A stretch of 64,000 nt of DNA, taken from positions 49,435-113,434 of the forward strand of contig JBFNNX010000026.1 of assembly GCA_040791665.1 (NCBI GenBank). Reading direction: 5' to 3'. The notes below the pieces were generated by a model. The model saw only the letters and a program-made list of their open reading frames with translations. It was not told the origin of the DNA and searched no databases. Shown piece after piece: positions 33,075-46,304 of the stretch. The DNA comes from Candidatus Thiodiazotropha sp. GTDB taxonomy: Bacteria > Pseudomonadota > Gammaproteobacteria > Chromatiales > Chromatiaceae. The translations under genes and the position numbers were made by a program. Within the stretch, counting starts at the first letter, position 1, and the number at the start of each line of letters is the position of its first letter.

Positions 33075-33102
33075 CCTCACACCGGTGAGACCCGGTGTGA
33101 GG
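33075..33102. other. Intercistronic 11-bp stem-loop without U-tract
   Basis: CCTCACACCGG-TGAGAC-CCGGTGTGAGG. Confidence 0.6.
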
Positions 33103-33129
33103 CATCTAAAATCTGGTTCGGGGGGCGTT

Positions 33130-34734
33130 ATGTGCTCATTTAAGAGTTGTACACTACGTCTGGCCTCACTGTTGCAGTTCATCTTGTTTCTGATGTTTGC
33201 CATCAACCTGACGGCATCAGATGAGATAATCAGTTCAACGGCCGATCACACTAAGTTCGAATCGCTTCAACAGGCCTTCAGCACAGGTCCGGAAGTGACA
33301 AAAGCCTGTCTCGAGTGCCATACTGAAGCCGCTAGACAGATCCATAAAACCAAACATTGGAATTGGCAATTCACCCACCCCGATACCGGCGAGGAGCTGG
33401 GAAAACAGACAATTGTCAACAATTTCTGCGGTGCCATTGAGACCAATTATGCCCGCTGTACGAGTTGTCATGTCGGTTATGGATGGAAAGACAACAGCTT
33501 CGATTTCAGTTCTGAAACGAATGTCGATTGCCTTGTCTGTCACGACACAACAGGTACCTACAAAAAGTTTCCGACCGGGGCAGGACATCCCCCCTATGTG
33601 GATAAACCCTTCCCGCCCAAGAGCAAAAAGATCTGGAAAGCGCCGGATCTTGCTCATGTGGCCCAGCATGTCGGCAAGACTAGTCGAAAAACCTGTGGCG
33701 CCTGCCATTTTTATGGTGGTGGCGGTGATGGTGTCAAGCATGGTGATCTCGATTCGAGTATGACCGATCCAAGCAAATCGCTCGATGTCCATATGGGCAC
33801 GGATGGGCTGGATTTCGTCTGCAGTACCTGCCACCAGAAAGATGGGCACGATGTATCGGGCAGTCGATATACCACTCAGGCCAAGGATACACAGGGTATC
33901 GATGTGCCGGGTCGTGGCGATAATATCCGCTCGACCTGCGAGTCCTGCCACGGCCTCAAGCCTCATCCCGTCACGGTAAACAACAAACTGAACGATCACA
34001 TCAACAAGGTTGCCTGCACAACATGCCATATTCCAACCTATGCCAGGGGCGGCAAGCCGACCAAGACCTGGTGGGACTGGTCAACGGCAGGGCGTATGAG
34101 CAATGACGGTAAACACATCAAGACAAAAGATGACCAGGGCTATGTAAACTACGTCACCAAAAAAGGCTCTTTCGAATGGGGTGAAAACCTGAAACCGGAA
34201 TATGCTTGGTTTTCGGGCAATATTCGTTATAAGCAACTCGATGAAAAGATCGATCCCAACAAGGTCGTTGCAATCAATACCTTCGAAGGGAGTTATGATG
34301 ACCCTGATGCCAGGATCTGGCCATTTAAGGTGATGCGGGGCAAACAGCCCTATGACAAAGGCAACAACACCCTGGTAACGACCCATCTCTTCGGCAAGGA
34401 CAGTAATGCATATTGGAAGTCCTTTGATTGGAACAGGGCAATTAAAGCAGCCATGGATGCAGGTAATGCCGCATACAGCGGCGAATACGGTTTCATCGAA
34501 ACCACCTACCACTGGCCGTTGGCACATATGGTTGCCCCTGTAGACCAGGCGCTCGGCTGTGAAGCCTGTCATGCAAAGGATGGTCGGCTAAGTAAGCTCA
34601 CTGGTTTTTACATGCCCGCTCGGGACAGTTACTACTGGGTCGATCTGATCGGCTGGCTGGCGGTCTTGGGTACCGTGGGGGGTATTTCCATCCATGGCTT
34701 GGGTCGGCTCTTCTCGAAAGCCAAGCGGAGATAA
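33130..34734 (+). CDS. otr: Octaheme tetrathionate reductase (Otr) family cytochrome c
   Basis: TADH..F, eight CxxCH, NNFC...RCTSCH, GGGGDGVKHGDL, WDWSTAG, C-terminal TM. Confidence 0.88.
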   Translation: MCSFKSCTLRLASLLQFILFLMFAINLTASDEIISSTADHTKFESLQQAFSTGPEVTKACLECHTEAARQIHKTKHWNWQFTHPDTGEELGKQTIVNNFCGAIETNYARCTSCHVGYGWKDNSFDFSSETNVDCLVCHDTTGTYKKFPTGAGHPPYVDKPFPPKSKKIWKAPDLAHVAQHVGKTSRKTCGACHFYGGGGDGVKHGDLDSSMTDPSKSLDVHMGTDGLDFVCSTCHQKDGHDVSGSRYTTQAKDTQGIDVPGRGDNIRSTCESCHGLKPHPVTVNNKLNDHINKVACTTCHIPTYARGGKPTKTWWDWSTAGRMSNDGKHIKTKDDQGYVNYVTKKGSFEWGENLKPEYAWFSGNIRYKQLDEKIDPNKVVAINTFEGSYDDPDARIWPFKVMRGKQPYDKGNNTLVTTHLFGKDSNAYWKSFDWNRAIKAAMDAGNAAYSGEYGFIETTYHWPLAHMVAPVDQALGCEACHAKDGRLSKLTGFYMPARDSYYWVDLIGWLAVLGTVGGISIHGLGRLFSKAKRR

Positions 34735-34738
34735 ATCA

Positions 34739-35341
34739 ATGAGCCAAATCTATTATTTCTCACTCTTTGAACGCCTGTGGCATTGGTCTCAAGCGATACT
34801 GATATTCGGTATGCTGATAACCGGATTTGAAATCCACGGAACCTATCATTTGTTCGGCTTTGAACAGGCTATCGACCTGCATACGATCATGGCATGGGTA
34901 CTGATCGGCTTGTGGCTGCTCGCACTGTTTTGGCATACAACCACTGGGGAGTGGCGCCAGTATGTGCCGAGCGATCCTGACAGCATGCTGGCAATGGTCA
35001 AGTATTATGCAGTCGGTATCTTTCTCGGTGCGCCACATCCCTTCCACCGGAAACGCGCGGAAAAGCACAATCCGCTGCAGAGAATGGCTTATTTGATGCT
35101 AACAATGGTCATTTCACCGATTATCTGGATCAGTGGATTACTCTATCTTTTTTATCAATACTGGCCATCCATCGGACTGCAGGACGTGCAGCTTGGGTTG
35201 ATTGCTGTCGTGCACACAATCGGCGCATTCGCAATACTTTGCTTTATACCCATTCATCTCTATTTGGCTTTGACAACGGGAGAAAAGCCTTTTGGAAACC
35301 TGGTGGAGATGATAGTCGGGCATGAGGCCAAGGATGGTTGA
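34739..35341 (+). CDS. Cytochrome b subunit (PhsC / Ni-hydrogenase cytochrome b type)
   Basis: FERLWHWSQA, LHTIMAW, KHNPLQRMAY, VHTIGAF...IHLY; four TM with heme His residues. Confidence 0.85.
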   Translation: MSQIYYFSLFERLWHWSQAILIFGMLITGFEIHGTYHLFGFEQAIDLHTIMAWVLIGLWLLALFWHTTTGEWRQYVPSDPDSMLAMVKYYAVGIFLGAPHPFHRKRAEKHNPLQRMAYLMLTMVISPIIWISGLLYLFYQYWPSIGLQDVQLGLIAVVHTIGAFAILCFIPIHLYLALTTGEKPFGNLVEMIVGHEAKDG

Positions 35342-35552: not shown

Positions 35553-36941
35553 CTACTTATCTATTCCGTAGCGTTTCATCTTCTGCCATAAGTTTTTACG
35601 GGAAATGCCCAAGGAATCTGCTGTCTGGTTGATTTTGCCGCTATTTTCCGCCAATGCCCTGACAATTGACTTTCTTTCAGCTTCTTCAATAGTCTCTTTA
35701 AGTGTGGTTGTGTCGTGATCGTGGGCGCTGTTGTCCGTGATAGACAGGTCGTTTTTGCTGATCCAAGGTCCATCGCACAGGGCGACAGCTCTTTCGATGA
35801 TATTTTTAAGTTCACGAACATTTCCAGGGAATGACATGGATTGAAGATAGAGTTCAGCCTCCTTCGACAAACCTTTGACGCCCCCTTTTTTACATTGTCC
35901 AAGCTGGCTGACGAACTGCCTTGCAAGATAGACGATATCCTCCCTGCGTTGACGCAGTGGTGGGATATCGATATGGATTACATTGAGACGCCAGTAGAGA
36001 TCCGATCTGAATTCGTTTTTTTCAATAGCTACATCGAGGTTGGCCTGGGTTGCGGCGATTACCCTTACATCAAGCGGGATTGAAACAGATCCGCCAACAC
36101 GTTCAAACTCCCTCTCCTGCAGCACTCTCAGCAGTTTTACCTGTATGTCAGACGATACTTCCGCAATTTCATCAAGAAAGATGGTGCCCCCTTGAGCCTG
36201 CTCAAAACGCCCTTTTCGTTGATGTGTCGCTCCTGTAAAGGAGCCCTTTTCATGACCGAAGAGCTCACTTTCGATCAGTGTGGAAGGTAGGGCGGCACAG
36301 TTTACACTTACCATGGGGCCTTGTGACCTGAGACTGTTGTTGTGGATCAGGTTTGCAACGACTTCCTTGCCAACCCCGGACTCTCCTGTAAGCAATACTG
36401 AACTGTCACTCTCTCTGAGACGTGCCACCAGTCTCTCGATCTTTCGCATAGCGTTGCTTTTTCCCAAACAACCGCTACCCGGTTTGAGATGATCAATTGC
36501 CGCGCTCGAGCCTTTGGTCGTCAATTGGTTGTCAGAGATACAAGAGAGCTGATGAATTACTTTCTTTATAAAATCATTGATGTCAAATGGTTTTGTAAGA
36601 TAATCAAAAGCGCCGGCTTTAACTGTGGCGACTGCGTCCGATATATCGCCATAGGCCGTCATGAGGATGACTGGTATGCCTGGAAAATTGCTTGAGATAT
36701 CTGTAAAGAGTTCGATCCCTGTGCCATCCGGTAGACGGATATCGGTTACCACTAGGTCAATATCACCTTTTTCCAGCTCTTTTCTTGCGCTCGCGGTATC
36801 GCTTACCGCACGCACGGGAATCGATTCCATGCGTAACCTGTCAACAAGAGAGATTTGCATGATTTCATCATCTTCAACCAGCAATAGACATAAGTCTTTG
36901 AATCTACCCCTATCCATTGTGTAATCGATACTATTCTGCAT
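35553..36941 (-). CDS. Sigma-54-dependent response regulator (NtrC family, AioR-like)
   Basis: Receiver (VEDD, DIRLPD, KPF), AAA+ (GESGVGKE, ELFGHEKGSFTGA, FLDEI), Fis-type HTH. Confidence 0.95.
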   Translation of the reverse strand: MQNSIDYTMDRGRFKDLCLLLVEDDEIMQISLVDRLRMESIPVRAVSDTASARKELEKGDIDLVVTDIRLPDGTGIELFTDISSNFPGIPVILMTAYGDISDAVATVKAGAFDYLTKPFDINDFIKKVIHQLSCISDNQLTTKGSSAAIDHLKPGSGCLGKSNAMRKIERLVARLRESDSSVLLTGESGVGKEVVANLIHNNSLRSQGPMVSVNCAALPSTLIESELFGHEKGSFTGATHQRKGRFEQAQGGTIFLDEIAEVSSDIQVKLLRVLQEREFERVGGSVSIPLDVRVIAATQANLDVAIEKNEFRSDLYWRLNVIHIDIPPLRQRREDIVYLARQFVSQLGQCKKGGVKGLSKEAELYLQSMSFPGNVRELKNIIERAVALCDGPWISKNDLSITDNSAHDHDTTTLKETIEEAERKSIVRALAENSGKINQTADSLGISRKNLWQKMKRYGIDK

Positions 36942-38425
36942 TAGGCCGCCTGTCTGTTGATTACAGGCAGTTCGATGAGGAAAGTCGTGCCTTTTCCTAC
37001 CTCGCTCTCAACCTCGATAATACCTTGCATATTCTGAACCAGACGATAGACGACCCAAAGCCCCAATCCCGTGCCATTGGGTTTGGTCGTAAAGAAAGGA
37101 TCGAACATTTGGTTTCTTATATTTGAGGCAACACCGGGGCCATTGTCACTGACTTTGATTACGAGAAGACTTCCTTCCTGATGCATGTTGAAAGCAATGG
37201 TTCCATTCTCGGGAATGATTTCAACGGCGTTCTTCAGCAAATTGCAGATAATCTGTTCGGTCTTTCCCGGAATACAGGTATCTCTATCGGTCTTATTGTT
37301 CCAGAATATTTTGATATCTCTTTCACCTATTTCAGCCAGGATCAAATCATGAAGCTTGTCGACCTGTTCAATATTTATCATTTCATCACTCTCCTCGTTC
37401 TTGAGCCCAACGAGCAGGTTGTGGACAATATCCTTGATCCGATGCAGACCCTGGTCAATCACCGGTAGATAACGATCGATCAACTCCTTGTCGTTTGGAT
37501 GCTGACGTAGCGTATCTATGCAGTTTAATAGCCCTGCCAGAGGATTGTTTACCTCATGTGCCACACCTGCGGTTATTCTTCCTAGGGCAACCAACTTCTC
37601 GCTCATTGCGATCTCCTCCTCGAGCATCTTTTTTTCCGCAAGTTCAGACATGATTTGATTGAAGGTCACACTGAGCCTCCCTATTTCATCCCCCTCTTTC
37701 ACCGGTATTGGAGAAAAATCTGTCATCTCTCCACGCCCAACCGCCTCAAGTCCATGAGTTATTGCAGTCAAAGGTCCGACCACCCGCCTGGATACTATGG
37801 TGCCCAGCAGGCTTCCGATGATGACAAAGAGCAATATTGAAAGGAGAACGATTACAGTTGTCGACTTTGCCTTTTCAAACAGACTGGCGACAGAGAGGCG
37901 AACCCGAACTACTCCAAGGTATTTTTGATCTGAAAACAGAGGTACGACACCTTCCTGGAATCCATCCCTGGAAAAGAAATCCCCACTACTCAATACAGTC
38001 GGGGTTCTTGCGGCCATCGCCTGATTGGCTATCGTTTTATCAGCTTCATTTTCTGGAGAGAATACGAGGCCTATCGGGTGCTTCGCAGGATGAAGGTGCG
38101 CCTGAACTACACCTTCTGCATCCAATATCATCGCATCTATAATTTCATGTTCGCTTCTGGCCCCAGGTCCCTTAGACGCCATATTCTTGAGACTGAGGTA
38201 AAGAGACCAGTAGTCCTTACGCAGCATTGCCTTTGGTGCAGTGATTGAAATGGATTCTGATAGCAGCAGCGCTTTCTCACCCAGGTCATTTTGAAATCGA
38301 TTCCAGTCCTGGAGAACCATGAGGCCTCCGATGAGGAATCCGACACTGGTGACAACGGCCGTTATGGTAAGGGATAACTTTATCGCCAATGGCCAGGATT
38401 TTGGATTAATCATGGGCATTTGCAT
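36941..38425 (-). CDS. HAMP sensor histidine kinase (AioS-like)
   Basis: Two TM, HAMP (GDEIGRL), AHEVNNPL, NLLKNA, DNGPG, FFTTKPNGTGLGL. Confidence 0.93.
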   Translation of the reverse strand: MQMPMINPKSWPLAIKLSLTITAVVTSVGFLIGGLMVLQDWNRFQNDLGEKALLLSESISITAPKAMLRKDYWSLYLSLKNMASKGPGARSEHEIIDAMILDAEGVVQAHLHPAKHPIGLVFSPENEADKTIANQAMAARTPTVLSSGDFFSRDGFQEGVVPLFSDQKYLGVVRVRLSVASLFEKAKSTTVIVLLSILLFVIIGSLLGTIVSRRVVGPLTAITHGLEAVGRGEMTDFSPIPVKEGDEIGRLSVTFNQIMSELAEKKMLEEEIAMSEKLVALGRITAGVAHEVNNPLAGLLNCIDTLRQHPNDKELIDRYLPVIDQGLHRIKDIVHNLLVGLKNEESDEMINIEQVDKLHDLILAEIGERDIKIFWNNKTDRDTCIPGKTEQIICNLLKNAVEIIPENGTIAFNMHQEGSLLVIKVSDNGPGVASNIRNQMFDPFFTTKPNGTGLGLWVVYRLVQNMQGIIEVESEVGKGTTFLIELPVINRQAA

Positions 38426-38434
38426 TCTAAAATA

Positions 38435-39304
38435 TTAATCGCTTTGTACTACGGAGTACCTGGGGTCAGCTCTTTGAACTGTATTTTCCAAAGTGCGGAT
38501 TTCGTTGAACAGCGAATCAGAATAGTGACCAAACCCATCCAGTTTGAGCCGGTCGAGCAGTTCCTTGCCGGTTAAATCCTTATCCATGTTCTCAAGTGTC
38601 TGCTTCATCTTTTTTACTATGTTGTCATCTATGCCTAAACGGTAAACAATAGGCGGAAAACCAAAGCTTGGAGACTTCTTTATTATCCGGGTTTTTTCAG
38701 TAATGTCTGGTTTGAAGACGGCAATGTACTCCCAGATATACGAGTCTACGGCTCCGCCATCTGCAACCTGCTCGGAAACGGCTTGCACCGTCTCAGCGTG
38801 ATTGAAGGTAAAAAAGGTTTCTCGGAAAAAGCTCTCGGGTTTCTCTCCTTTTTTTACCACCAAGGCAAGAGGATAGAGGAAGCCTGAATTCGAGTCAGGG
38901 TCAGAGAAGGCAAAACTTTTTCCTTTCAAGTCGCTAAAGCGTTTATAGGGACTGCTGTGATGGACAATAATATAAGAGTAATAATGCGGTGATCCCCGGT
39001 AGACAGGTACTGTCAGGAGCTGAAGTGATTCCGGTTCTCTTGCCTGGATGTAAGGATAACCGCATATCCATGCGAATTCGATACCACCTGATTCCAATAG
39101 GTCCATCACCTCTCGATAGGACTTTCTCTGCACAAACTCGACCTTCCGGCCTATTTTGTGTTCCAGGTATTGACTCCACTGGTCCAGAAATCTGAGGTTT
39201 TCAGTAAGTACCACAGCCGTCAAGCCAAAGCGGATAGGTGTATCCATATTGGCGGCATAAAGCGGGGTAATCCAGAAGAGCAATAATAAAAGGGTCAATC
39301 GCAC
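38435..39304 (-). CDS. PhnD-fold periplasmic oxyanion-binding protein, AioX/ArxX-like
   Basis: Signal peptide; FAWICGYPY, FAFSDPDSNSG, FTFNH, VDSYIW motifs as in AioX-type sensors; co-transcribed with the kinase and regulator, with no ABC permease or ATPase nearby. Confidence 0.8.
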   Translation of the reverse strand: MRLTLLLLLFWITPLYAANMDTPIRFGLTAVVLTENLRFLDQWSQYLEHKIGRKVEFVQRKSYREVMDLLESGGIEFAWICGYPYIQAREPESLQLLTVPVYRGSPHYYSYIIVHHSSPYKRFSDLKGKSFAFSDPDSNSGFLYPLALVVKKGEKPESFFRETFFTFNHAETVQAVSEQVADGGAVDSYIWEYIAVFKPDITEKTRIIKKSPSFGFPPIVYRLGIDDNIVKKMKQTLENMDKDLTGKELLDRLKLDGFGHYSDSLFNEIRTLENTVQRADPRYSVVQSD

Positions 39305-39377: not shown

Positions 39378-39793
39378 TTTATGCCACGGTACCAGTGCGA
39401 TAAATGTCATGTGCACCCTGTGGAGAACAAGGGCCGTCTCTGGCTTCGCCTTCCTGTAGTTTCATAATTGCTATCTTCCAATGATAGCAGAATCCATTGT
39501 TTAATCTGGAAGTCCTTGTTTTTTTTAATTGCGCAAGTTTATTGCCCTGATTACCTATTTGTACTCTCAATTTAAGAGACGAGTGAAGAGGCTATCATTT
39601 TAATGCTTCTCCCTTTTGCTGTTTGTTACCGTCCGGTAACAGACTGTACGGCACTATTTCACTAACGATATGTAATTAAAGAACAAACCAGAACGGTTAC
39701 GGTTTCAACTGAAACGTTACCAAGAGGTAACAAAATTTGGATTGCTAATTCTATCGTTATATGTTTTTTCCAATATTTCAGGCAGATATGAAT

Positions 39794-39810
39794 TTGGAAC
39801 GACTCTTGCT
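39794..39810 (+). promoter_or_regulatory. Sigma-54 (-24/-12) promoter of the cytochrome/Mo-enzyme operon
   Basis: TTGGAACGACTCTTGCT has GG-N10-GC with a close consensus match, 67 bp before the ATG at 39878. Confidence 0.8.
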
Positions 39811-39877: not shown

Positions 39878-41398
39878 ATGAACAGTGGCGCTGGAGTTCA
39901 ATTTAGAGTTACCTGGCGACAGATGGCACTGATTTGCGCGGGAACGGTTCTTTTCCTGTTAACGGCCTGGGGCGGTGTCGAGTATTATACATCGCAGTCA
40001 TCGTTTTGCGGTGGCAGCTGCCACACCATGACAGAGCAGTATGAAGCCTGGAAGTCAAACTATCACTACAAGAGCAACAATCCGGATGGTATGCAAGCAG
40101 AGTGCGTCGATTGCCATTTTCTTCCCGGCAAGAAGCATTCTCTGAAGGCCAAGTACGAAGGATTACGCCACCTTGCAGCCTACCTTTATGATCCGGATGC
40201 GCCACTGCCCATACGTCCGGTCATCAAGGATGGCGCTTGCCTACAGTCTGGCTGTCATGAGCGTGAGAAACTGGCGGTAGTAGAGATACAGTATACTGAG
40301 AGAGTCCGCTTCAAACACGAGGTTCACTTTAGTGACAAGGCTCTTGATGGTCACCAAATCACCTGCGATACCTGCCACTTCAAGACAACGAAGAACAAGC
40401 ATTTCGAGGTGCCTGAGGATATCTGTTTCCTATGTCACCTTAAACTGGATAAACCCACTCTTGATAAAGCGGAGATGGCCAATGGAGAGATTAAGAAAAT
40501 CACCTTCGTCAACAAGCCAGCCATCGATTTCAACCAAGGGGTATCCCGCTGTGATATCTGCCACACGATCCCAACAAGATCACTTCAAAGCCAGTTGCAG
40601 GTAGGAGACCCTGCCAGCACCAAGAAACCGATCACCCATCAGACAATACAGGAATCAGGAGTTGCTTGTGAGAGTTGCCACTTCGAGGTGGTGAGCGGCG
40701 AGGGCGAGATTGATACCGGAAACGTCGTCTCGAATGGCTGTCTTACTTGCCATAACAGAAGTCAGACGTTACTGGCAACTGCAGATGACCGTGAACTCAT
40801 GCATGGCAAGCATGTGCCGAACAAGGCTGACTGTTTCGATTGTCACAGTGTGATCGAACACAAGAACAGAACTGATCATCTTGATTTTGTACGCAATGAC
40901 TGTCAGCTCTGTCATGTCGACCAGCACAAGTACCAAAGGCTATTACTTTCAGGCTCTCCTGTTGATGAGGACATCTCGGGTGACCCGCATCTTATGTACG
41001 AAGTCAACACAAACTGCATGGGCTGTCATCTCAAGAAGACGCTGAGTAATGGGCATGATGTTCGGACAGCATCAGGTGATACCTGTGCTGCCTGCCATAC
41101 GGAGCAGCACAGGAAAATGCTCAGTGACTGGAAGAGTTTACTGACCAATGAGGTAGCAGATGTGGAAGAGGTCGAGAAGGAAGCCACGCAACTCTTCGCC
41201 GAACTGAAGGGTAGGTTGGACAATGAGAAATTGACTCAAGCGGAGGAAATGCTCGCCAAGGGAGGCGAACTTCTCAATATTGTACGTGTTGGTAACGGAG
41301 TACATAACAAAAAGTACGCAGTAAACATTCTCGACGGTGCATTCGCAAATTTCGAAGACACCATTGAGCTATTGGAAAACGCAACTAACAGTGAATGA
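39878..41398 (+). CDS. Membrane-anchored dodecaheme cytochrome c with NapC-like N-terminus
   Basis: One N-terminal TM; ten CxxCH plus CGGSCH (CX3CH) and CLQSGCH (CX4CH); helical C-terminus with GVHN. Confidence 0.85.
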   Translation: MNSGAGVQFRVTWRQMALICAGTVLFLLTAWGGVEYYTSQSSFCGGSCHTMTEQYEAWKSNYHYKSNNPDGMQAECVDCHFLPGKKHSLKAKYEGLRHLAAYLYDPDAPLPIRPVIKDGACLQSGCHEREKLAVVEIQYTERVRFKHEVHFSDKALDGHQITCDTCHFKTTKNKHFEVPEDICFLCHLKLDKPTLDKAEMANGEIKKITFVNKPAIDFNQGVSRCDICHTIPTRSLQSQLQVGDPASTKKPITHQTIQESGVACESCHFEVVSGEGEIDTGNVVSNGCLTCHNRSQTLLATADDRELMHGKHVPNKADCFDCHSVIEHKNRTDHLDFVRNDCQLCHVDQHKYQRLLLSGSPVDEDISGDPHLMYEVNTNCMGCHLKKTLSNGHDVRTASGDTCAACHTEQHRKMLSDWKSLLTNEVADVEEVEKEATQLFAELKGRLDNEKLTQAEEMLAKGGELLNIVRVGNGVHNKKYAVNILDGAFANFEDTIELLENATNSE

Positions 41399-41460
41399 TC
41401 TTTCAACAAACACACAATCAACAGTAGCGGAGGATGAGAAGATGCGTAGGAGAATACGAT

Positions 41461-42312
41461 ATGAGTGACAACAAAACACCAGACATCAACCGTCGCAAAT
41501 TCCTGAGTGGTGTAGGCACAGCCGCGGTAGGCGCTGCGGCCTTGGCGACACCGAGGGTAAGTCTTGAAGCAGCCCAATCAAAAGCACCTCGATGGGCGAT
41601 GGTCATGGACCTGAGGCGCTGCATAGGCTGCAGGGCCTGTACAGTCGCCTGCAAATCGGAAAACAACGTTTCGTTGGGCCGCTTCCGGGCAGTCATCCAA
41701 GAGAAAACCATGGGCACCTTTCCAAAGACCAAAAAGGAATTCTTACCCCTGATGTGCAATCACTGCGAGGGCAATGAGAAAGATGGCGTTCCTCCTTGTG
41801 TGAAAATATGTCCGGAGTATCCAGGCAAACGGGCCAAGTTCAAAACATCTGATGGCAAAACAATACGCTATCGCACAGGTGCGACCTATAAGCGTCCCGA
41901 TGGCATGATCCTGATAGACAAAGAAAAATGTATCGGCTGCGGTAAGTGTATCGATGCCTGCCCGTACGGGGTGCGTTCATTTGATCCCTTTGTAAAAGCG
42001 GGTGGTGACCAGACAAAGCAGGCAGCGGACAAATGCGATCTGTGTGCGCATCGTGTCGATAACGGGATCGAACCCTCCTGCGTCAACACTTGCCAGGGTC
42101 GCGCACGTATTTTCGGAGACCTGAACGATCCGAGCAGCGAAGTCTCCAAGCTTGTAAAAGAGCACAACCTGGCCAAGGCAGACAATGTACTGCTTCCGGA
42201 AGAGGGAACCAATCCACATGTGTTCTACATCGATCCCGACAACATGTTGAAAACCCTCTATACACAGCGAAAGAAGGGCAAGCTGGACCACTTTGTGGAC
42301 CAGATTCCATAG
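41461..42312 (+). CDS. Tat-exported 4x[4Fe-4S] electron-transfer subunit (TtrB/PsrB/DmsB family)
   Basis: NRRKFL Tat motif; DLRRCIGCRACTVAC, CNHC...CVKIC, CIGCGKCIDAC, CDLC...CVNTC. Confidence 0.92.
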   Translation: MSDNKTPDINRRKFLSGVGTAAVGAAALATPRVSLEAAQSKAPRWAMVMDLRRCIGCRACTVACKSENNVSLGRFRAVIQEKTMGTFPKTKKEFLPLMCNHCEGNEKDGVPPCVKICPEYPGKRAKFKTSDGKTIRYRTGATYKRPDGMILIDKEKCIGCGKCIDACPYGVRSFDPFVKAGGDQTKQAADKCDLCAHRVDNGIEPSCVNTCQGRARIFGDLNDPSSEVSKLVKEHNLAKADNVLLPEEGTNPHVFYIDPDNMLKTLYTQRKKGKLDHFVDQIP

Positions 42313-42345: not shown

Positions 42346-44871
42346 ATGAAAAAGTTAAATCGTCGTGATTTCATGAAATTGACTGCCGGCAGCGGCTGTG
42401 CATTGGCGACTGGATTGGGCTGCAGTCAGAGCGCATTTGCCGGATCGCTTAAACTGCAGGCAGGCGGCAAGGATTTTTCACCTACAACAGGTAAGGAGAG
42501 AAAGGCAATCCCCACAGCCTGCTGGCAGTGTGTAACCCGAGACTCCATGATCGGTTATGTGGAGGATGGGCGCCTGGTAAAGCTCGAGGGACATCCCGAT
42601 TCCATACGCACACTCGGCAAACTCTGTGCCAAGGGACAGGCGGGTATCAACCAGGTCTATTTCCCGGACCGGATCCTGCACCCAATGAAACGCGTAGGCA
42701 AACGTGGCGAGCACAAGTGGAAACGAATTTCCTGGGACGAGGCCCTTGATCTGGTTGTATCCAAGCTGAAACCTCTGCGTGATGCGGGTACCCCAGAACT
42801 GTTTATGTATCAGTACGGAAGACACAAGGCGTCTCAGGCCGCGACCATGTACGACTTCATGCAGGCCTATGGCACTGGCACCATCGGTAATCACACCTCT
42901 GTCTGCGAGGCGGCAAAATGGGTGGGACAAGAGAGTCTTTGGGGCGGCATGTATGACAACTGGGATTATGACAAAACCGATTACGTGGTGATTTTCGGCA
43001 GCAATCAGTTCGAGACCCATACCAATCACATTCCGACCGCCCAGCGTCTGATTCGGGCCAAGGTTGATCGTGGTGTACCCCTATACGTATTCGATGTGCG
43101 CCTGACAAATACCGCAGCCAAGGCCGATCAGTGGGTGCCGATCAATGTGGGACATGACGGACTGGTGATGCTGGCCATGTGCAATGTCATCATGAACGAG
43201 AAACTCTACAGGAAGGACCACTTCAAATTCATGCGTGTCACCGAAGACTACAAGGCGACTGTCGATGAGAAGATTGCAGCCGTGAAGAAAAATGTCGCCA
43301 AGTACACCCCTGAGTTTGCAGAGAAACACAGTGGCGTGCCTGCCGATACCATACGCAAGATCGCTCGCGGATTCGCAAAAGCCAAATCGGCCTGCCTGGT
43401 TACCTACCGTGGAACGGTAATGCACTATCACGGCGCAGATCAGGAACGGGCGGCAATGCTGTTGTCGGCCATTACCAACAATCTCGATCGTCCGGGTGGT
43501 CGTGTCATGGGTGTTGGAGCAGGCTGGAAACATCCTTCCTCCCCCAAGGCAAAGGTTCACAAAACCCTCCACGTCAAGGACGGATTTCCGGGTGAAGCGG
43601 CCTACCCGACTCACCATGTAAGTCACCAGGTACTTCCGATGATCAAAGATGGCAACGCGGGTCGACCGAAGGTCTACTGGTGGAGTTGCTACAACCCAGG
43701 GTTCATCAATGGCGACAACAAGGAACTCCAGTCGATCCTGAAAGATGAGAGCATCATCCCATTCCTCATTACAACAACCATCGTCTACGACGAGTCCTCT
43801 CAGTATGCAGACCTGATCCTGCCCGACGTCACCTACCTGGAACGCTGGGACTGGGAGGACATGGTGTCGGCAAATCAGATCGCAGAATTCTATATCCGGC
43901 AGCCATTGGTGAAACCGTTGGGAGAATCACGTTGCCAGGGCGATGTCTGGCCCGAGCTGGCCAAGCGCATGGGCTTTGAACTGGCATACTCCAGCAAGGA
44001 GGACTTCGTACGCCAGTCCTGCGAGATGACGCCCGGCGTGCGTGAGGCCGGGGGCTTCGAGTATATGAAGAAGCACGGTGTTTGGCACGATCCGAACGCC
44101 AAGCCCAACTACGGCTTCTATGAGAACAAGGTGGACGTATCCGGCGATGGCGTGATTCTCGACGAGAAGACCGGAGTCTACTGGAACTGGAAAAAGGCGG
44201 GTGTCAACAGCGAAGCCGAGGCCAAGCGTCAGGGGTATCTGGGTACAAAAGGCGCGAAAAAGGCGTATGTCGCGCAAAACATCGATGGCGCGGCATACAA
44301 GGCCTACCCGCCCAATACCAAGTTCGTCAAGGCGGGATATCTGGACTTCTATTCAGATAATTTCGTCAAAAAGGGCTTTCCGGCATTCCCATCCTATACA
44401 CCGATTCCTGAACACCAGAAGATGGCGGATGATGAGCTGAATCTCACCACCTACAAGGTGGCGGTACATACCCATTCAAGGACCGCACACTGCAAGTGGC
44501 TCACCGAGATCAAGCACGATAATCCCGGCTGGATCAATACCAAGACGGCTGAAGCGCGCGGTATTAAGAACGGTGACAAGATCAGGGTCTATAACAGCCT
44601 GGGTGAGATCACCACCACAGCCTATGTCACCGAGGGTATTATTCCGGGCGTGATCGCCATATCCCATCACCTGGGTCGCAAGCACTCGGGGGTCTATGGA
44701 TCGGGCAAGCGTTCTCCCACGCCAGGTGGTGCCACAGCTGATCCGGATGTGAAGAATATATGGTGGAAAAAACATGGCACTCATCCCAATACCATCATCC
44801 CCAACTCTTCAGATCCTATCAGCGGCACACAGAGGTGGATGGATACCGTCGTCAGGGTAGCCAAGGCATAA
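42346..44871 (+). CDS. Tat-exported Mo/W-bisMGD oxidoreductase catalytic subunit (Psr/Phs/Ttr/Arr branch of the DMSO reductase family), substrate unknown
   Basis: NRRDFM Tat motif; FS0 region CWQCVTRD...KLCAKG; putative Mo-ligand Cys in GNHTSVCEAAK; LILPDVTYLERW; C-terminal MGD-binding domain. Confidence 0.9.
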   Translation: MKKLNRRDFMKLTAGSGCALATGLGCSQSAFAGSLKLQAGGKDFSPTTGKERKAIPTACWQCVTRDSMIGYVEDGRLVKLEGHPDSIRTLGKLCAKGQAGINQVYFPDRILHPMKRVGKRGEHKWKRISWDEALDLVVSKLKPLRDAGTPELFMYQYGRHKASQAATMYDFMQAYGTGTIGNHTSVCEAAKWVGQESLWGGMYDNWDYDKTDYVVIFGSNQFETHTNHIPTAQRLIRAKVDRGVPLYVFDVRLTNTAAKADQWVPINVGHDGLVMLAMCNVIMNEKLYRKDHFKFMRVTEDYKATVDEKIAAVKKNVAKYTPEFAEKHSGVPADTIRKIARGFAKAKSACLVTYRGTVMHYHGADQERAAMLLSAITNNLDRPGGRVMGVGAGWKHPSSPKAKVHKTLHVKDGFPGEAAYPTHHVSHQVLPMIKDGNAGRPKVYWWSCYNPGFINGDNKELQSILKDESIIPFLITTTIVYDESSQYADLILPDVTYLERWDWEDMVSANQIAEFYIRQPLVKPLGESRCQGDVWPELAKRMGFELAYSSKEDFVRQSCEMTPGVREAGGFEYMKKHGVWHDPNAKPNYGFYENKVDVSGDGVILDEKTGVYWNWKKAGVNSEAEAKRQGYLGTKGAKKAYVAQNIDGAAYKAYPPNTKFVKAGYLDFYSDNFVKKGFPAFPSYTPIPEHQKMADDELNLTTYKVAVHTHSRTAHCKWLTEIKHDNPGWINTKTAEARGIKNGDKIRVYNSLGEITTTAYVTEGIIPGVIAISHHLGRKHSGVYGSGKRSPTPGGATADPDVKNIWWKKHGTHPNTIIPNSSDPISGTQRWMDTVVRVAKA

Positions 44872-44900: not shown

Positions 44901-45554
44901 ATGGGAACCGACTGGAATAAAATGGCCGATAACGCCAAAACAAGAAGTGACACGTATGGGTTATTGACCCTGGTCTTTCGGCAGGAGCCCAGCGAAGCCT
45001 TCATCAACGAACTGAGGGGGCCCCGCTTGGCGGGGGCCTTCTCGGACATGGAGCTGGACATGGGTGGCTCTTTTTACAGCGAACCCGTATCAACCATAGC
45101 CGATCAACTTGCGCTTGAATTTTCGCGCCTGTTCATAGGTCCTGGTCGGCATATTTCTGCCCATGAATCGATTTTCACTGAAGTGGATGGTGACTCAGGC
45201 GGTTTGTGGGGCGCCAGAACAGTTGAAGTGAAGAAGTTCATCGAGACAACCGGACTTGATTACGCTTCCCAGTTCACGGGCCTGCCTGATCATATCAGCG
45301 TTGAACTTGAGTTCATGCAGAAACTGACCCAGTGGGAATCCGCCAAGTGGATGGAGATGGATCGCAAAAGCGCGGAGTACTGCCTGTCAATTCAGCGTAT
45401 GTTCTTGCAACAGCACATACTGGGTTGGATACCCAAGTTCTGTGATGCGGTGATATTTCAGGCCGACATGCCTTTTTACCGTGAACTGGCTGGATTGATG
45501 AAAAACTTCCTTGAGTTCGAACAGCAGAGCCTGGCAATCGAATCAGCCGCTTAG
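44901..45554 (+). CDS. TorD/DmsD-family redox enzyme maturation chaperone
   Basis: EFSRLFIGPG, AHESIF, LPDHISVELEFM, FLQQHILGWIP. Confidence 0.92.
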   Translation: MGTDWNKMADNAKTRSDTYGLLTLVFRQEPSEAFINELRGPRLAGAFSDMELDMGGSFYSEPVSTIADQLALEFSRLFIGPGRHISAHESIFTEVDGDSGGLWGARTVEVKKFIETTGLDYASQFTGLPDHISVELEFMQKLTQWESAKWMEMDRKSAEYCLSIQRMFLQQHILGWIPKFCDAVIFQADMPFYRELAGLMKNFLEFEQQSLAIESAA

Positions 45555-45632: not shown

Positions 45633-46304
45633 TCAGGGTCTTCTTTTTGAGCCGTACCGATTATGAAGAGTGATCTCTTGATCGGGCATCATACCTAGTT
45701 CCCTGCCTTCCTTGATGGCGAAGCCGATAGGTGCCCCAAGATTCATCCGGTAGGCCGCCCACATGGTCCCAAGCAGTTCCGCTCTCGGAGCATAGACCAA
45801 CAGCATTCCATGGCTGGCATCTACAACGTGTTGAGTGAAATTCTCCACCTGCTCCAGACTCGGTAGGTTGCCGTCAACCGGGATGCTTATATAGCGCATA
45901 CCCAGCGCTTCGGTCTCCAGTTGATGCAGGCGAGCAGTTTTTTTCGGTGTGCCAAGATCGATTACCGTTTTAAATCCAAACGCCTCCAGCTCAGCAATAC
46001 GATTGAGCGGCCGCCCCATGGTGGCCTGCAGATAAGGTATGGCGCGGCCTGGGTCAGGTATTGCAATGCCGTAACCCATCCGTCCCGGAAGCTTTGACGA
46101 GTGATGGTTAAGCATTTGGGGTAACACCCTTCCGTCCGGGGTAGTTGCTACTTCGCTATCATCCCTATTTACTTCACCATCACCCCACCAACCACATGCA
46201 CCGACCTGTCCCGGAGACATTAAAATGATGCATAACAGAAATAGGGTGGACGAAGCTATAGTGTTACATGGTTTTACTGCACTGAACATGGGATTGAGTC
46301 TCAA
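45633..46304 (-). CDS. Exported protein with a DUF442/PTP-like domain lacking the catalytic Cys
   Basis: Hydrophobic leader, CGWWGDGE, GFKTVIDL, GMRYISIPV; LLVYAPRAE stands where HCxxGxR is expected. Confidence 0.55.
   Translation of the reverse strand: MRLNPMFSAVKPCNTIASSTLFLLCIILMSPGQVGACGWWGDGEVNRDDSEVATTPDGRVLPQMLNHHSSKLPGRMGYGIAIPDPGRAIPYLQATMGRPLNRIAELEAFGFKTVIDLGTPKKTARLHQLETEALGMRYISIPVDGNLPSLEQVENFTQHVVDASHGMLLVYAPRAELLGTMWAAYRMNLGAPIGFAIKEGRELGMMPDQEITLHNRYGSKRRP

Follow-up and report, generated by a model that had tools for sequence, protein, structure and literature searches.

Arsenite sensors of the AioX/ArxX family are the closest described relatives of the protein considered here, the product X of a gene (38435..39304, minus strand) in a 64,000-nucleotide stretch of a Candidatus Thiodiazotropha sp. 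genome (GenBank assembly GCA_040791665.1, contig JBFNNX010000026.1, positions 49,435 to 113,434; this whole stretch is hereafter the window). The ligand pocket of AioX comprises Tyr88, Cys106, Tyr131, Ser161, Ser163, His192 and Asp210; arsenite is joined to the sulfur of Cys106 and is covered by a closing hydrophobic loop of Val56, Phe57 and Leu58 (Badilla et al. 2018, PMC5908839). Position 57 of this lid is Phe in AioX and Ile in ArxX, and the lid is absent from ArrX and PhnD (PMC5908839). Isothermal titration calorimetry (ITC) gave arsenite binding at 177 nM for AioX and 311 nM for ArxX, and neither protein bound any of nine other oxyanions (PMC5908839). Antimonite, thiosulfate, tetrathionate and selenate are not bound by either protein, nor are phosphate and phosphonate; the anions tested on AioX did not include sulfite and selenite (PMC5908839).

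The regulatory designs around these sensors are known as well. In the AioXSR system of Rhizobium/Pseudorhizobium sp. NT-26 (PDB 6ESK, 6ESV, 6EU7), X is the first gene of an X-S-R operon with a sigma-54 regulator, and the target promoter carries a GTTNC-N6-GNAAC-type enhancer and an RpoN element; GTTNC-N6-GNAAC is the AioR site proposed for Burkholderiales (PMC3673622). In the ArxXSR/arxB2ABCD systems of Alkalilimnicola ehrlichii, Ectothiorhodospira and Azoarcus sp. CIB, the X-S-R and enzyme operons are divergent. The X-S-R set is considered to have evolved separately from the enzymes under its control (Badilla et al., PMC5908839). The window shares the sensor fold, the pocket and the operon and promoter layout of these systems, and differs in the enzyme. 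Its X-S-R genes, 12-haem cytochrome and uncharacterised molybdenum (Mo) enzyme form a new version of an established regulatory design, and on balance the locus is best read as an AioXSR/ArxXSR-type arsenite sensor that controls the adjacent molybdoenzyme.

Sensor protein X and its ligand pocket

The open reading frame of X has exactly the coordinates given in the original prediction; it encodes 289 amino acids, starts with GTG and has GAGGA 7 nt upstream; its hydrophobic N-terminus is as in a Sec signal. Domain, alignment and model evidence identify the predicted product as a Sec-exported periplasmic protein with the AioX fold. The best solved-structure relative is AioX of Rhizobium NT-26 (6esk; phmmer E 4.7e-61), followed by ArrX (E 3e-41) and then PhnD (E 4e-17); the bit scores against AioX and ArrX are 210 and 145. 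An AlphaFold model (predicted local distance difference test score, pLDDT, 88.5) was compared with the PDB by Foldseek, and its top matches were the AioX structures 6esv, 6esk and 6eu7 (TM-score 0.93-0.96, root-mean-square deviation 1.3 Å), which include the apo, phosphate-bound and arsenite-bound (6eu7) forms. PF12974 (E 6e-58) and TIGR01098 also match X, and the PhnD equivalog model TIGR03431 reaches 133 bits, below its cut-off of 261. These results support X as an AioX-family sensor protein rather than a PhnD transporter protein, in line with the original prediction, which had set its Cys against the phosphonate transport proteins; PhnD has Gly at that position. X adds a new member to the AioX/ArxX family and is the sole AioX-like protein in its genome.

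X and AioX are about 48% identical over the aligned stretch and share the lid length and a nine-residue pocket that includes the Cys. All nine pocket positions, namely the seven residues of Badilla et al. plus N139 and Y189, are identical in the alignment: Y63 corresponds to Y88, C81 to C106, Y108 to Y131, S138 to S161, N139 to N162, S140 to S163, H169 to H192, D187 to D210 and Y189 to Y212. The original prediction had matched the motifs WICGYP, SDPDSNSG, VD.Y and T.NH to AioX. The first three align column for column with the NT-26 protein (AWICGYP, AFSDPDSNSG and VD.Y, which is VDGY in AioX); in the fourth, TFNH of X faces TYGH of AioX, so that Thr and His are common and the Asn is not. Because the X model superposes on AioX at 1.3 Å, including the arsenite-bound form, and the alignment agrees, C81 is placed by homology in the ligand pocket, as had been proposed. 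The lid V31-V32-L33 corresponds without gaps to V56-F57-L58 within a loop spanning residues 28-36. The equivalent of lid position 57 is Val in X, neither Phe nor Ile, and AioX P55 and D60 are replaced by Ala and Glu. The pocket residues are invariant in 26/26 close relatives of X, one D187H excepted.

The Cys itself says less than the original prediction had made of it as a mark of As(III) binding. An exhaustive search yielded 133 full-length representatives of 50%-identity clusters, and 114 of them have Cys at the C81 column. Since arsenate-binding ArrX has it too, the residue characterises the subfamily as a whole and is no marker of As(III). The complete AioX signature YCYSNSHDY occurs in only 28 of the 133. 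In a large second group, which includes ArrX, the N139/Y189 positions are occupied by L, or by F and L, and an I-S-P stretch substitutes for the lid. ArrX (Chrysiogenes arsenatis, PDB 6X6B and others) shares with X the subfamily, the fold and the pocket residues Y, C, Y, S, S, H and D; it differs in having F and L at N139/Y189, a shorter polar loop for the lid and a CitB-type regulator, and it binds arsenate and phosphate. On these residues X belongs to the AioX/ArxX-type group and not to the ArrX-containing one, and the nine-residue signature with N139 and Y189, together with the hydrophobic lid, points to a ligand of the AioX/ArxX type rather than the ArrX type.

A sister clade of X (53% identical) has a rearranged pocket, with Y63 changed to C, C81 to G, P84 to C (WIGGYCF) and Y108 to H. 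The change is consistent in about 15 sequences (P0242, P0391-P0403, L100), and by its residues such a two-cysteine site would suit a trivalent metalloid. The L100 locus has the gene order X'-R-X-S and encodes both the rearranged variant and, beside the kinase, a second, canonical ArxX-like binding protein (L100:6200-7048 and L100:8539-9405, both plus strand).

Operon organisation, promoter and related loci

X is followed by a kinase and a regulator. S, a membrane histidine kinase with two transmembrane segments, a periplasmic loop and HAMP, HisKA and HATPase domains (36941..38425, minus strand), begins 9 nt past the X stop codon; the start of R, a sigma-54-dependent response regulator with REC, AAA+ sigma-54 activator and HTH_8 domains (35553..36941, minus strand), overlaps the S stop codon. 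Because the gene junctions are this tight and S and R have the domain sets of AioS and AioR, X is assigned to the head of an X-S-R operon, as in the aio and arx systems, with predicted co-transcription of S and R. These are its neighbours, and no permease or ATPase gene adjoins X. The original prediction had called the sensor stand-alone; this holds for X as a separate polypeptide, but not for its genetic context, in which X heads an operon and a molybdoenzyme operon runs divergently from it 573 bp away.

Four genes on the plus strand make up this divergent operon. The first encodes a membrane-anchored multihaem cytochrome with a NapC/NrfH-type head (39878..41398) and ten CxxCH motifs, one CxxxCH and one CxxxxCH; this 12-haem NapC-type cytochrome is, from its sequence, the likely link to the quinone pool. 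Domain and model matches identify the second product as a four-cluster iron–sulfur (FeS) subunit exported by twin-arginine translocation (Tat) and similar to TtrB/DsrO/ArrB (41434..42312), and the fourth as a TorD/DmsD-type maturation chaperone (44901..45554). Between them lies the gene for the catalytic subunit, a Tat-exported molybdenum bis(pyranopterin guanine dinucleotide) (Mo-bisPGD) protein of 841 amino acids (42346..44871) with the motifs YGRHK, HTSVC, which holds the Cys ligand, and CWQCVTRD.

Species-representative genomes were scanned with an AioX-type alignment, which gave 80 named loci that were typed by their adjacent molybdoenzyme. Kinase and sigma-54 regulator accompany X in 80/80 of them. 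About 30 loci share the cytochrome-FeS-Mo-TorD order of the window (W type); their Mo subunits are 75-96% identical to that of the window, across two proteobacterial classes, and their hosts are Candidatus Thiodiazotropha, Sedimenticola, Candidatus Endoriftia, other Gammaproteobacteria and marine Rhodospirillales. All seven genes of the sensor and enzyme operons keep their synteny in about 30 species (Sedimenticolaceae and marine Rhodospirillales), and in long W-type loci they alone are consistently common, joined in part of the loci by the lipoprotein gene described below. The B type (FeS-NrfD-Mo-TorD, about 24 loci, betaproteobacteria) has Mo subunits 38-39% identical to that of the window. 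The D type (10 loci, alpha- and gammaproteobacteria) has Mo subunits 56% identical to those of B. The Arx type (arxB2AB..., 8 loci) and the Aio type (aioBA, 5 loci) have various hosts.

The nine pocket positions are invariant across sensors joined to Aio, Arx, B-, D- and W-type enzymes. In a maximum-likelihood tree the Aio, Arx, B and D sensors are interleaved by host taxonomy, W-type sensors fall in at least three places, and ArrX-like representatives form an outgroup clade with support 100. The interleaving and the scattered W-type sensors agree with the separate evolution of X-S-R proposed by Badilla et al.

The promoter region contains two putative R-binding palindromes of the form GTTACC-N4-GGTAAC, a distal enhancer GTTACCGTCCGGTAAC (39625..39640) and, 91 bp from it, a proximal enhancer GTTACCAAGAGGTAAC (39716..39731). 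Downstream of the proximal site, at a start-to-start distance of 79 bp, is a candidate sigma-54 -24/-12 element TGGAACGACTCTTGCT (39795..39810, plus strand), recognised by its GG-N10-GC pattern and by inspection; it lies 82 nt ahead of the cytochrome start codon. The canonical TGGCAC-N5-TTGC pattern gave an intragenic match only, and the actual element is one base off (TGGAAC). The enhancer motif is the published AioR motif (PMC3673622) and resembles the footprinted Agrobacterium site (PMC5335332). It is also rare: GTTAC-N6-GTAAC has 8 sites in the whole 5.0-Mb genome, 2 of them between X and the cytochrome gene. Of 25 W-type loci with the divergent layout, 24 have a TGG-N9-TGC element preceded by one or more GTTAC(C)-N-(G)GTAAC sites. 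The usual arrangement is two enhancer sites 90-93 bp apart, with constant half-sites and varying spacers; in two-site loci the distance from the proximal site to the start of the downstream TGG-N9-TGC element is 77-92 bp.

Sensor and enzyme are also distributed together. Within the genus, 22 of 45 genomes have the sensor (at least 71% identity), and the identical 22 have the Mo subunit (at least 78% identity), usually 4-6 kb apart on the same contig. The sensor-enzyme module is accessory and moves as a unit, gained and lost together. Conserved synteny, the enhancer/sigma-54 promoter and the 22/22 co-occurrence together indicate that X-S-R very probably controls the adjacent cytochrome/FeS/Mo/TorD operon, and they bear out the expectation of a target enzyme that is neither Aio nor Arx.

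Some genomes of the genus (G135, G136, G140, G141, G158 and G161) have a different sensor/enzyme pair, with the sensor 44-47% and the Mo subunit 40-43% identical; judged by sequence, this pair is probably of D type. Two genomes have both sensor types, and G135 also has both enzyme types.

The molybdoenzyme and its neighbours

The Mo subunit is related to several known enzymes and matches none of them. With the AioA model it reaches 30 bits, where the cut-off is 359, and with the ArrA model 167 bits, where the cut-off is 1600. The top model match is PhsA (334 bits), under the cut-off of 694 for that model, and its best PDB relatives are PsrA (175 bits) and ArrA (151 bits). Identity is 24-26% to genuine ArxA, 28-30% to ArrA and 38-39% to the B-type enzymes (Unk-type). 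Its motif YGRHK stands against RGRY in ArrA and YGRGWG in ArxA. By sequence comparison, the Mo subunit belongs to an uncharacterised family that is neither Aio nor Arx/Arr. With no aioA found in the whole genome and an adjacent Mo subunit that is not Arx/Arr, the statement that no aioAB or arxAB genes adjoin the sensor stands. No description of this enzyme or module was found in the literature on Thiodiazotropha or Sedimenticola.

The Arx layout shares with the window the divergent operons, the sensor pocket and a Cys-ligated, Tat-exported Mo-bisPGD enzyme with FeS partner and TorD, a layout that fits anaerobic quinone-linked chemistry. The differences are in the enzyme, which lacks GRGWG, in the gene order (cytochrome-B-A-D, not B2-A-B-C-D) and in the membrane link, where the 12-haem NapC-type cytochrome stands in for ArxC, an NrfD-type anchor, and ArxB2, a polyferredoxin. 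From the Aio system the window differs in that its enzyme is not a Rieske/AioA arsenite oxidase.

The nearest enzyme relatives found outside the family of the window are the B-type enzymes. Two 'Unk' branches (Azoarcus EbN1 and Dechloromonas) were left unassigned in an earlier phylogeny (Duval et al. 2008, PMC2500031), and the B-type enzymes probably correspond to them ('UnkBCA' of Aromatoleum (Azoarcus) EbN1 and Dechloromonas aromatica), an assignment based on host taxa and B-C-A gene order, not on sequence comparison. They share with the window an FeS gene preceding the Mo gene, an Asp in the first FeS motif, a [YW]GR[HN][KR] motif and an AioX-type X-S-R partner; they differ in their NrfD-type membrane subunit (B-C-A-D), in being mainly betaproteobacterial, and in that some lie beside acr3/arsC. 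The first FeS motif of the window's Mo subunit (CWQCVTRD..C) has Asp at the place of the third Cys of relatives. The B-type enzyme likewise has Asp (CHVCNIQD), and ArxA, ArrA and PsrA have Cys there.

Two neighbouring elements were considered. On the opposite strand after the TorD gene lies a gene for a predicted lipoprotein of 223 amino acids (45633-46304, minus strand) with a domain like those of dual-specificity and protein tyrosine phosphatases (DSP/PTPase; PF22741, E 1e-6). It is kept in 11/20 long W-type loci; its HCx5R catalytic loop is not evident (LLVYAPRAELLG), and the sequence suggests that the protein may bind an oxyanion rather than act as a catalyst. An Otr octahaem cytochrome and a cytochrome b encoded beside R (33085-35341) were rejected as parts of the module, as they are found in no related locus.

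Inducer, mechanism and alternative readings

In the proposed mechanism, the ligand of X would be arsenite, As(OH)3, as for the characterised AioX and ArxX. It would be bound between the lobes by the C81 thiolate together with Y63, Y108, S138, S140, H169 and D187, and the hydrophobic lid V31-V32-L33 would close over it. Liganded X would dock on the periplasmic loop of S, S would phosphorylate R, and R at the two palindromes would activate sigma-54 transcription of the molybdoenzyme operon. The controlled enzyme would then act on arsenic; in the simplest form it would be a quinone-linked periplasmic arsenite oxidase.

Because the full signature is present and the lid loop is AioX/ArxX-like, arsenite is the likeliest inducer, and by comparison with known sensors it is rather more probable than all other ligands together. 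The trivalent metalloid or thiophilic inducer of the original prediction likewise stays a proposal. The first shell is identical to that of two ITC-proven arsenite binders. The W-type locus L100 carries the canonical ArxX-like second sensor, the genome of the window holds an arsenic island, and acr3/arsC adjoin 5/21 loci of the related B type.

Several points weigh against arsenite. A conserved pocket alone does not set selectivity, as ArrX with the same seven residues binds arsenate (PMC5908839). The main W-type sensor clade is a separate branch (support 99) with changes in or near the lid (P30A, F32V, D35E, V190I and T193Y). The RGRY and GRGWG signatures of ArrA and ArxA were looked for in the Mo subunit and are absent, and its best-scoring characterised relatives, PhsA and PsrA, reduce sulfur compounds. 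The hosts oxidise sulfur, and a sulfur or selenium oxyanion would be plausible for them too. Finally, acr3, arsC and arsR were found within 10 kb of 0/24 W-type loci. The last count was set aside as evidence on arsenic, since Arx loci likewise give 0/8. An argument for a new ligand from clade-specific pocket changes was also rejected, as there are only seven conservative differences and none is in the first shell.

A stronger form of the arsenite reading concerns the enzyme. The cytochrome/FeS/Mo/TorD operon could encode a third kind of respiratory enzyme for bacterial arsenite metabolism, unrecognised so far and additional to Aio and Arx, wired to quinone by the 12-haem NapC-type cytochrome and present as a widespread accessory module in clam and tubeworm symbionts and marine low-oxygen Rhodospirillales. 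This is a tentative suggestion, more doubtful than the identity of the inducer.

The most serious alternative keeps the same sensor and target operon and changes the ligand to another thiophilic or pyramidal one, such as Sb(III), selenite, tellurite, sulfite or a thioarsenic compound, with the enzyme being a sulfur, selenium or antimony oxidoreductase. Much of what weighs against arsenite favours it: the PhsA and PsrA scores, the sulfur-oxidising symbionts and low-oxygen marine bacteria that are its hosts, the separate W-type clade with its lid-loop substitutions and the lack of ars genes beside W-type loci. Sulfite and selenite lie outside the anion set tested on AioX (PMC5908839), and the L100 paralogue (X1) relocates its cysteines and does not lose them, which fits any thiophilic ligand. 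Set against this are first-shell residues identical to those of two arsenite-specific proteins, the failure of AioX and ArxX to bind antimonite, thiosulfate, tetrathionate or selenate (PMC5908839), and the movement of sensors among Aio, Arx and these enzymes within short spans of evolution. This alternative deserves consideration as a minority possibility.

An ArrX-like arsenate (As(V)) sensor, with the enzyme an alternative respiratory arsenate reductase, is improbable. X and ArrX are alike in fold and in seven residues of the pocket, the Cys among them. The enzyme falls in the Psr/Arr/Ttr super-clade, and in Shewanella NapC-type cytochromes reportedly feed ArrAB. X is closer to AioX than to ArrX in bit score, however; ArrX has F and L for N139 and Y189 and is without the V-x-L lid; ArrX-like proteins are the outgroup of the sensor tree; and the genome already has an RGRY-motif ArrA under ArsR control.

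That ArrA belongs to the arsenic island, which lies on another contig (C10:90000-109999, locus L019) and comprises arsR divergent from a 131-aa open reading frame, Otr, cytb, arrA, arrB, arrD (TorD-like) and a polyferredoxin gene. The ArrA of the island scores 1137 bits on the ArrA model. X is the only AioX-like protein in the genome and the island has no X-S-R of its own, which would favour regulation of ArrAB by X-S-R instead of, or besides, the adjacent operon. No GTTACC-N4-GGTAAC site occurs in the 20-kb arr locus, however, and arsR diverges from the arr operon. Moreover, among the 45 genomes of the genus, ArrA is found in 5, one of which is without the sensor, and 18 sensor-bearing genomes are without ArrA. 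Motif absence, the island's own arsR and the genus distribution thus led to its rejection as an X-S-R target, and such regulation is very unlikely.

Within the island, arsC-like and acr3 genes are convergent with the arr operon. Its octahaem Otr cytochrome and its cytochrome b each have a paralogue at 33085-35341 of the window, and the two cytochromes of the island may form a quinol-oxidising module for the anchorless ArrAB.

That X is the substrate-binding protein of a phosphonate/phosphite ABC transporter, as the databases name it, is scarcely credible: PhnD/PtxB proteins share with X the PF12974 domain (TIGR01098 also matches), the type II binding-protein fold and the Ser/His/Tyr side of the pocket, and a lucinid pangenome counts phnD in all metagenome-assembled genomes (MAGs) with phnCE often missing (PMC12278820), but PhnD/PtxB are only about 20-25% identical to X, have Gly for the Cys, are encoded with permease and ATPase genes and serve transport, not signalling, whereas X falls short of the PhnD equivalog cut-off, is encoded with a kinase and a regulator and has as relatives AioX and ArxX, which bind neither phosphate nor phosphonate (PMC5908839).

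The naming has consequences for the symbionts. Databases and the recent lucinid pangenome study treat the X-type protein as phnD (K02044). That study reports phnD in all Candidatus Thiodiazotropha MAGs, with phnCEFK often missing (PMC12278820), and its phnD count may partly consist of AioX-type sensors and other PhnD-fold proteins taken as transporter components. The phnD annotation of X misleads metabolic reconstructions of lucinid symbionts.

For the enzyme family, the sensor is a testable handle on a large and highly conserved group of molybdoenzymes without a known substrate. Here and in dozens of marine bacteria it is tied to an uncharacterised molybdenum enzyme, which suggests an overlooked redox enzyme for arsenic or a similar metalloid. 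If X binds arsenite, current surveys of aioA, arxA and arrA would be missing an enzyme of the arsenic redox cycle in seagrass sediments, at vents and in oxygen-deficient waters. Chemosynthetic symbionts would then gain an unrecognised metabolism, in which the hosts of the module sense and use, or detoxify, arsenite.

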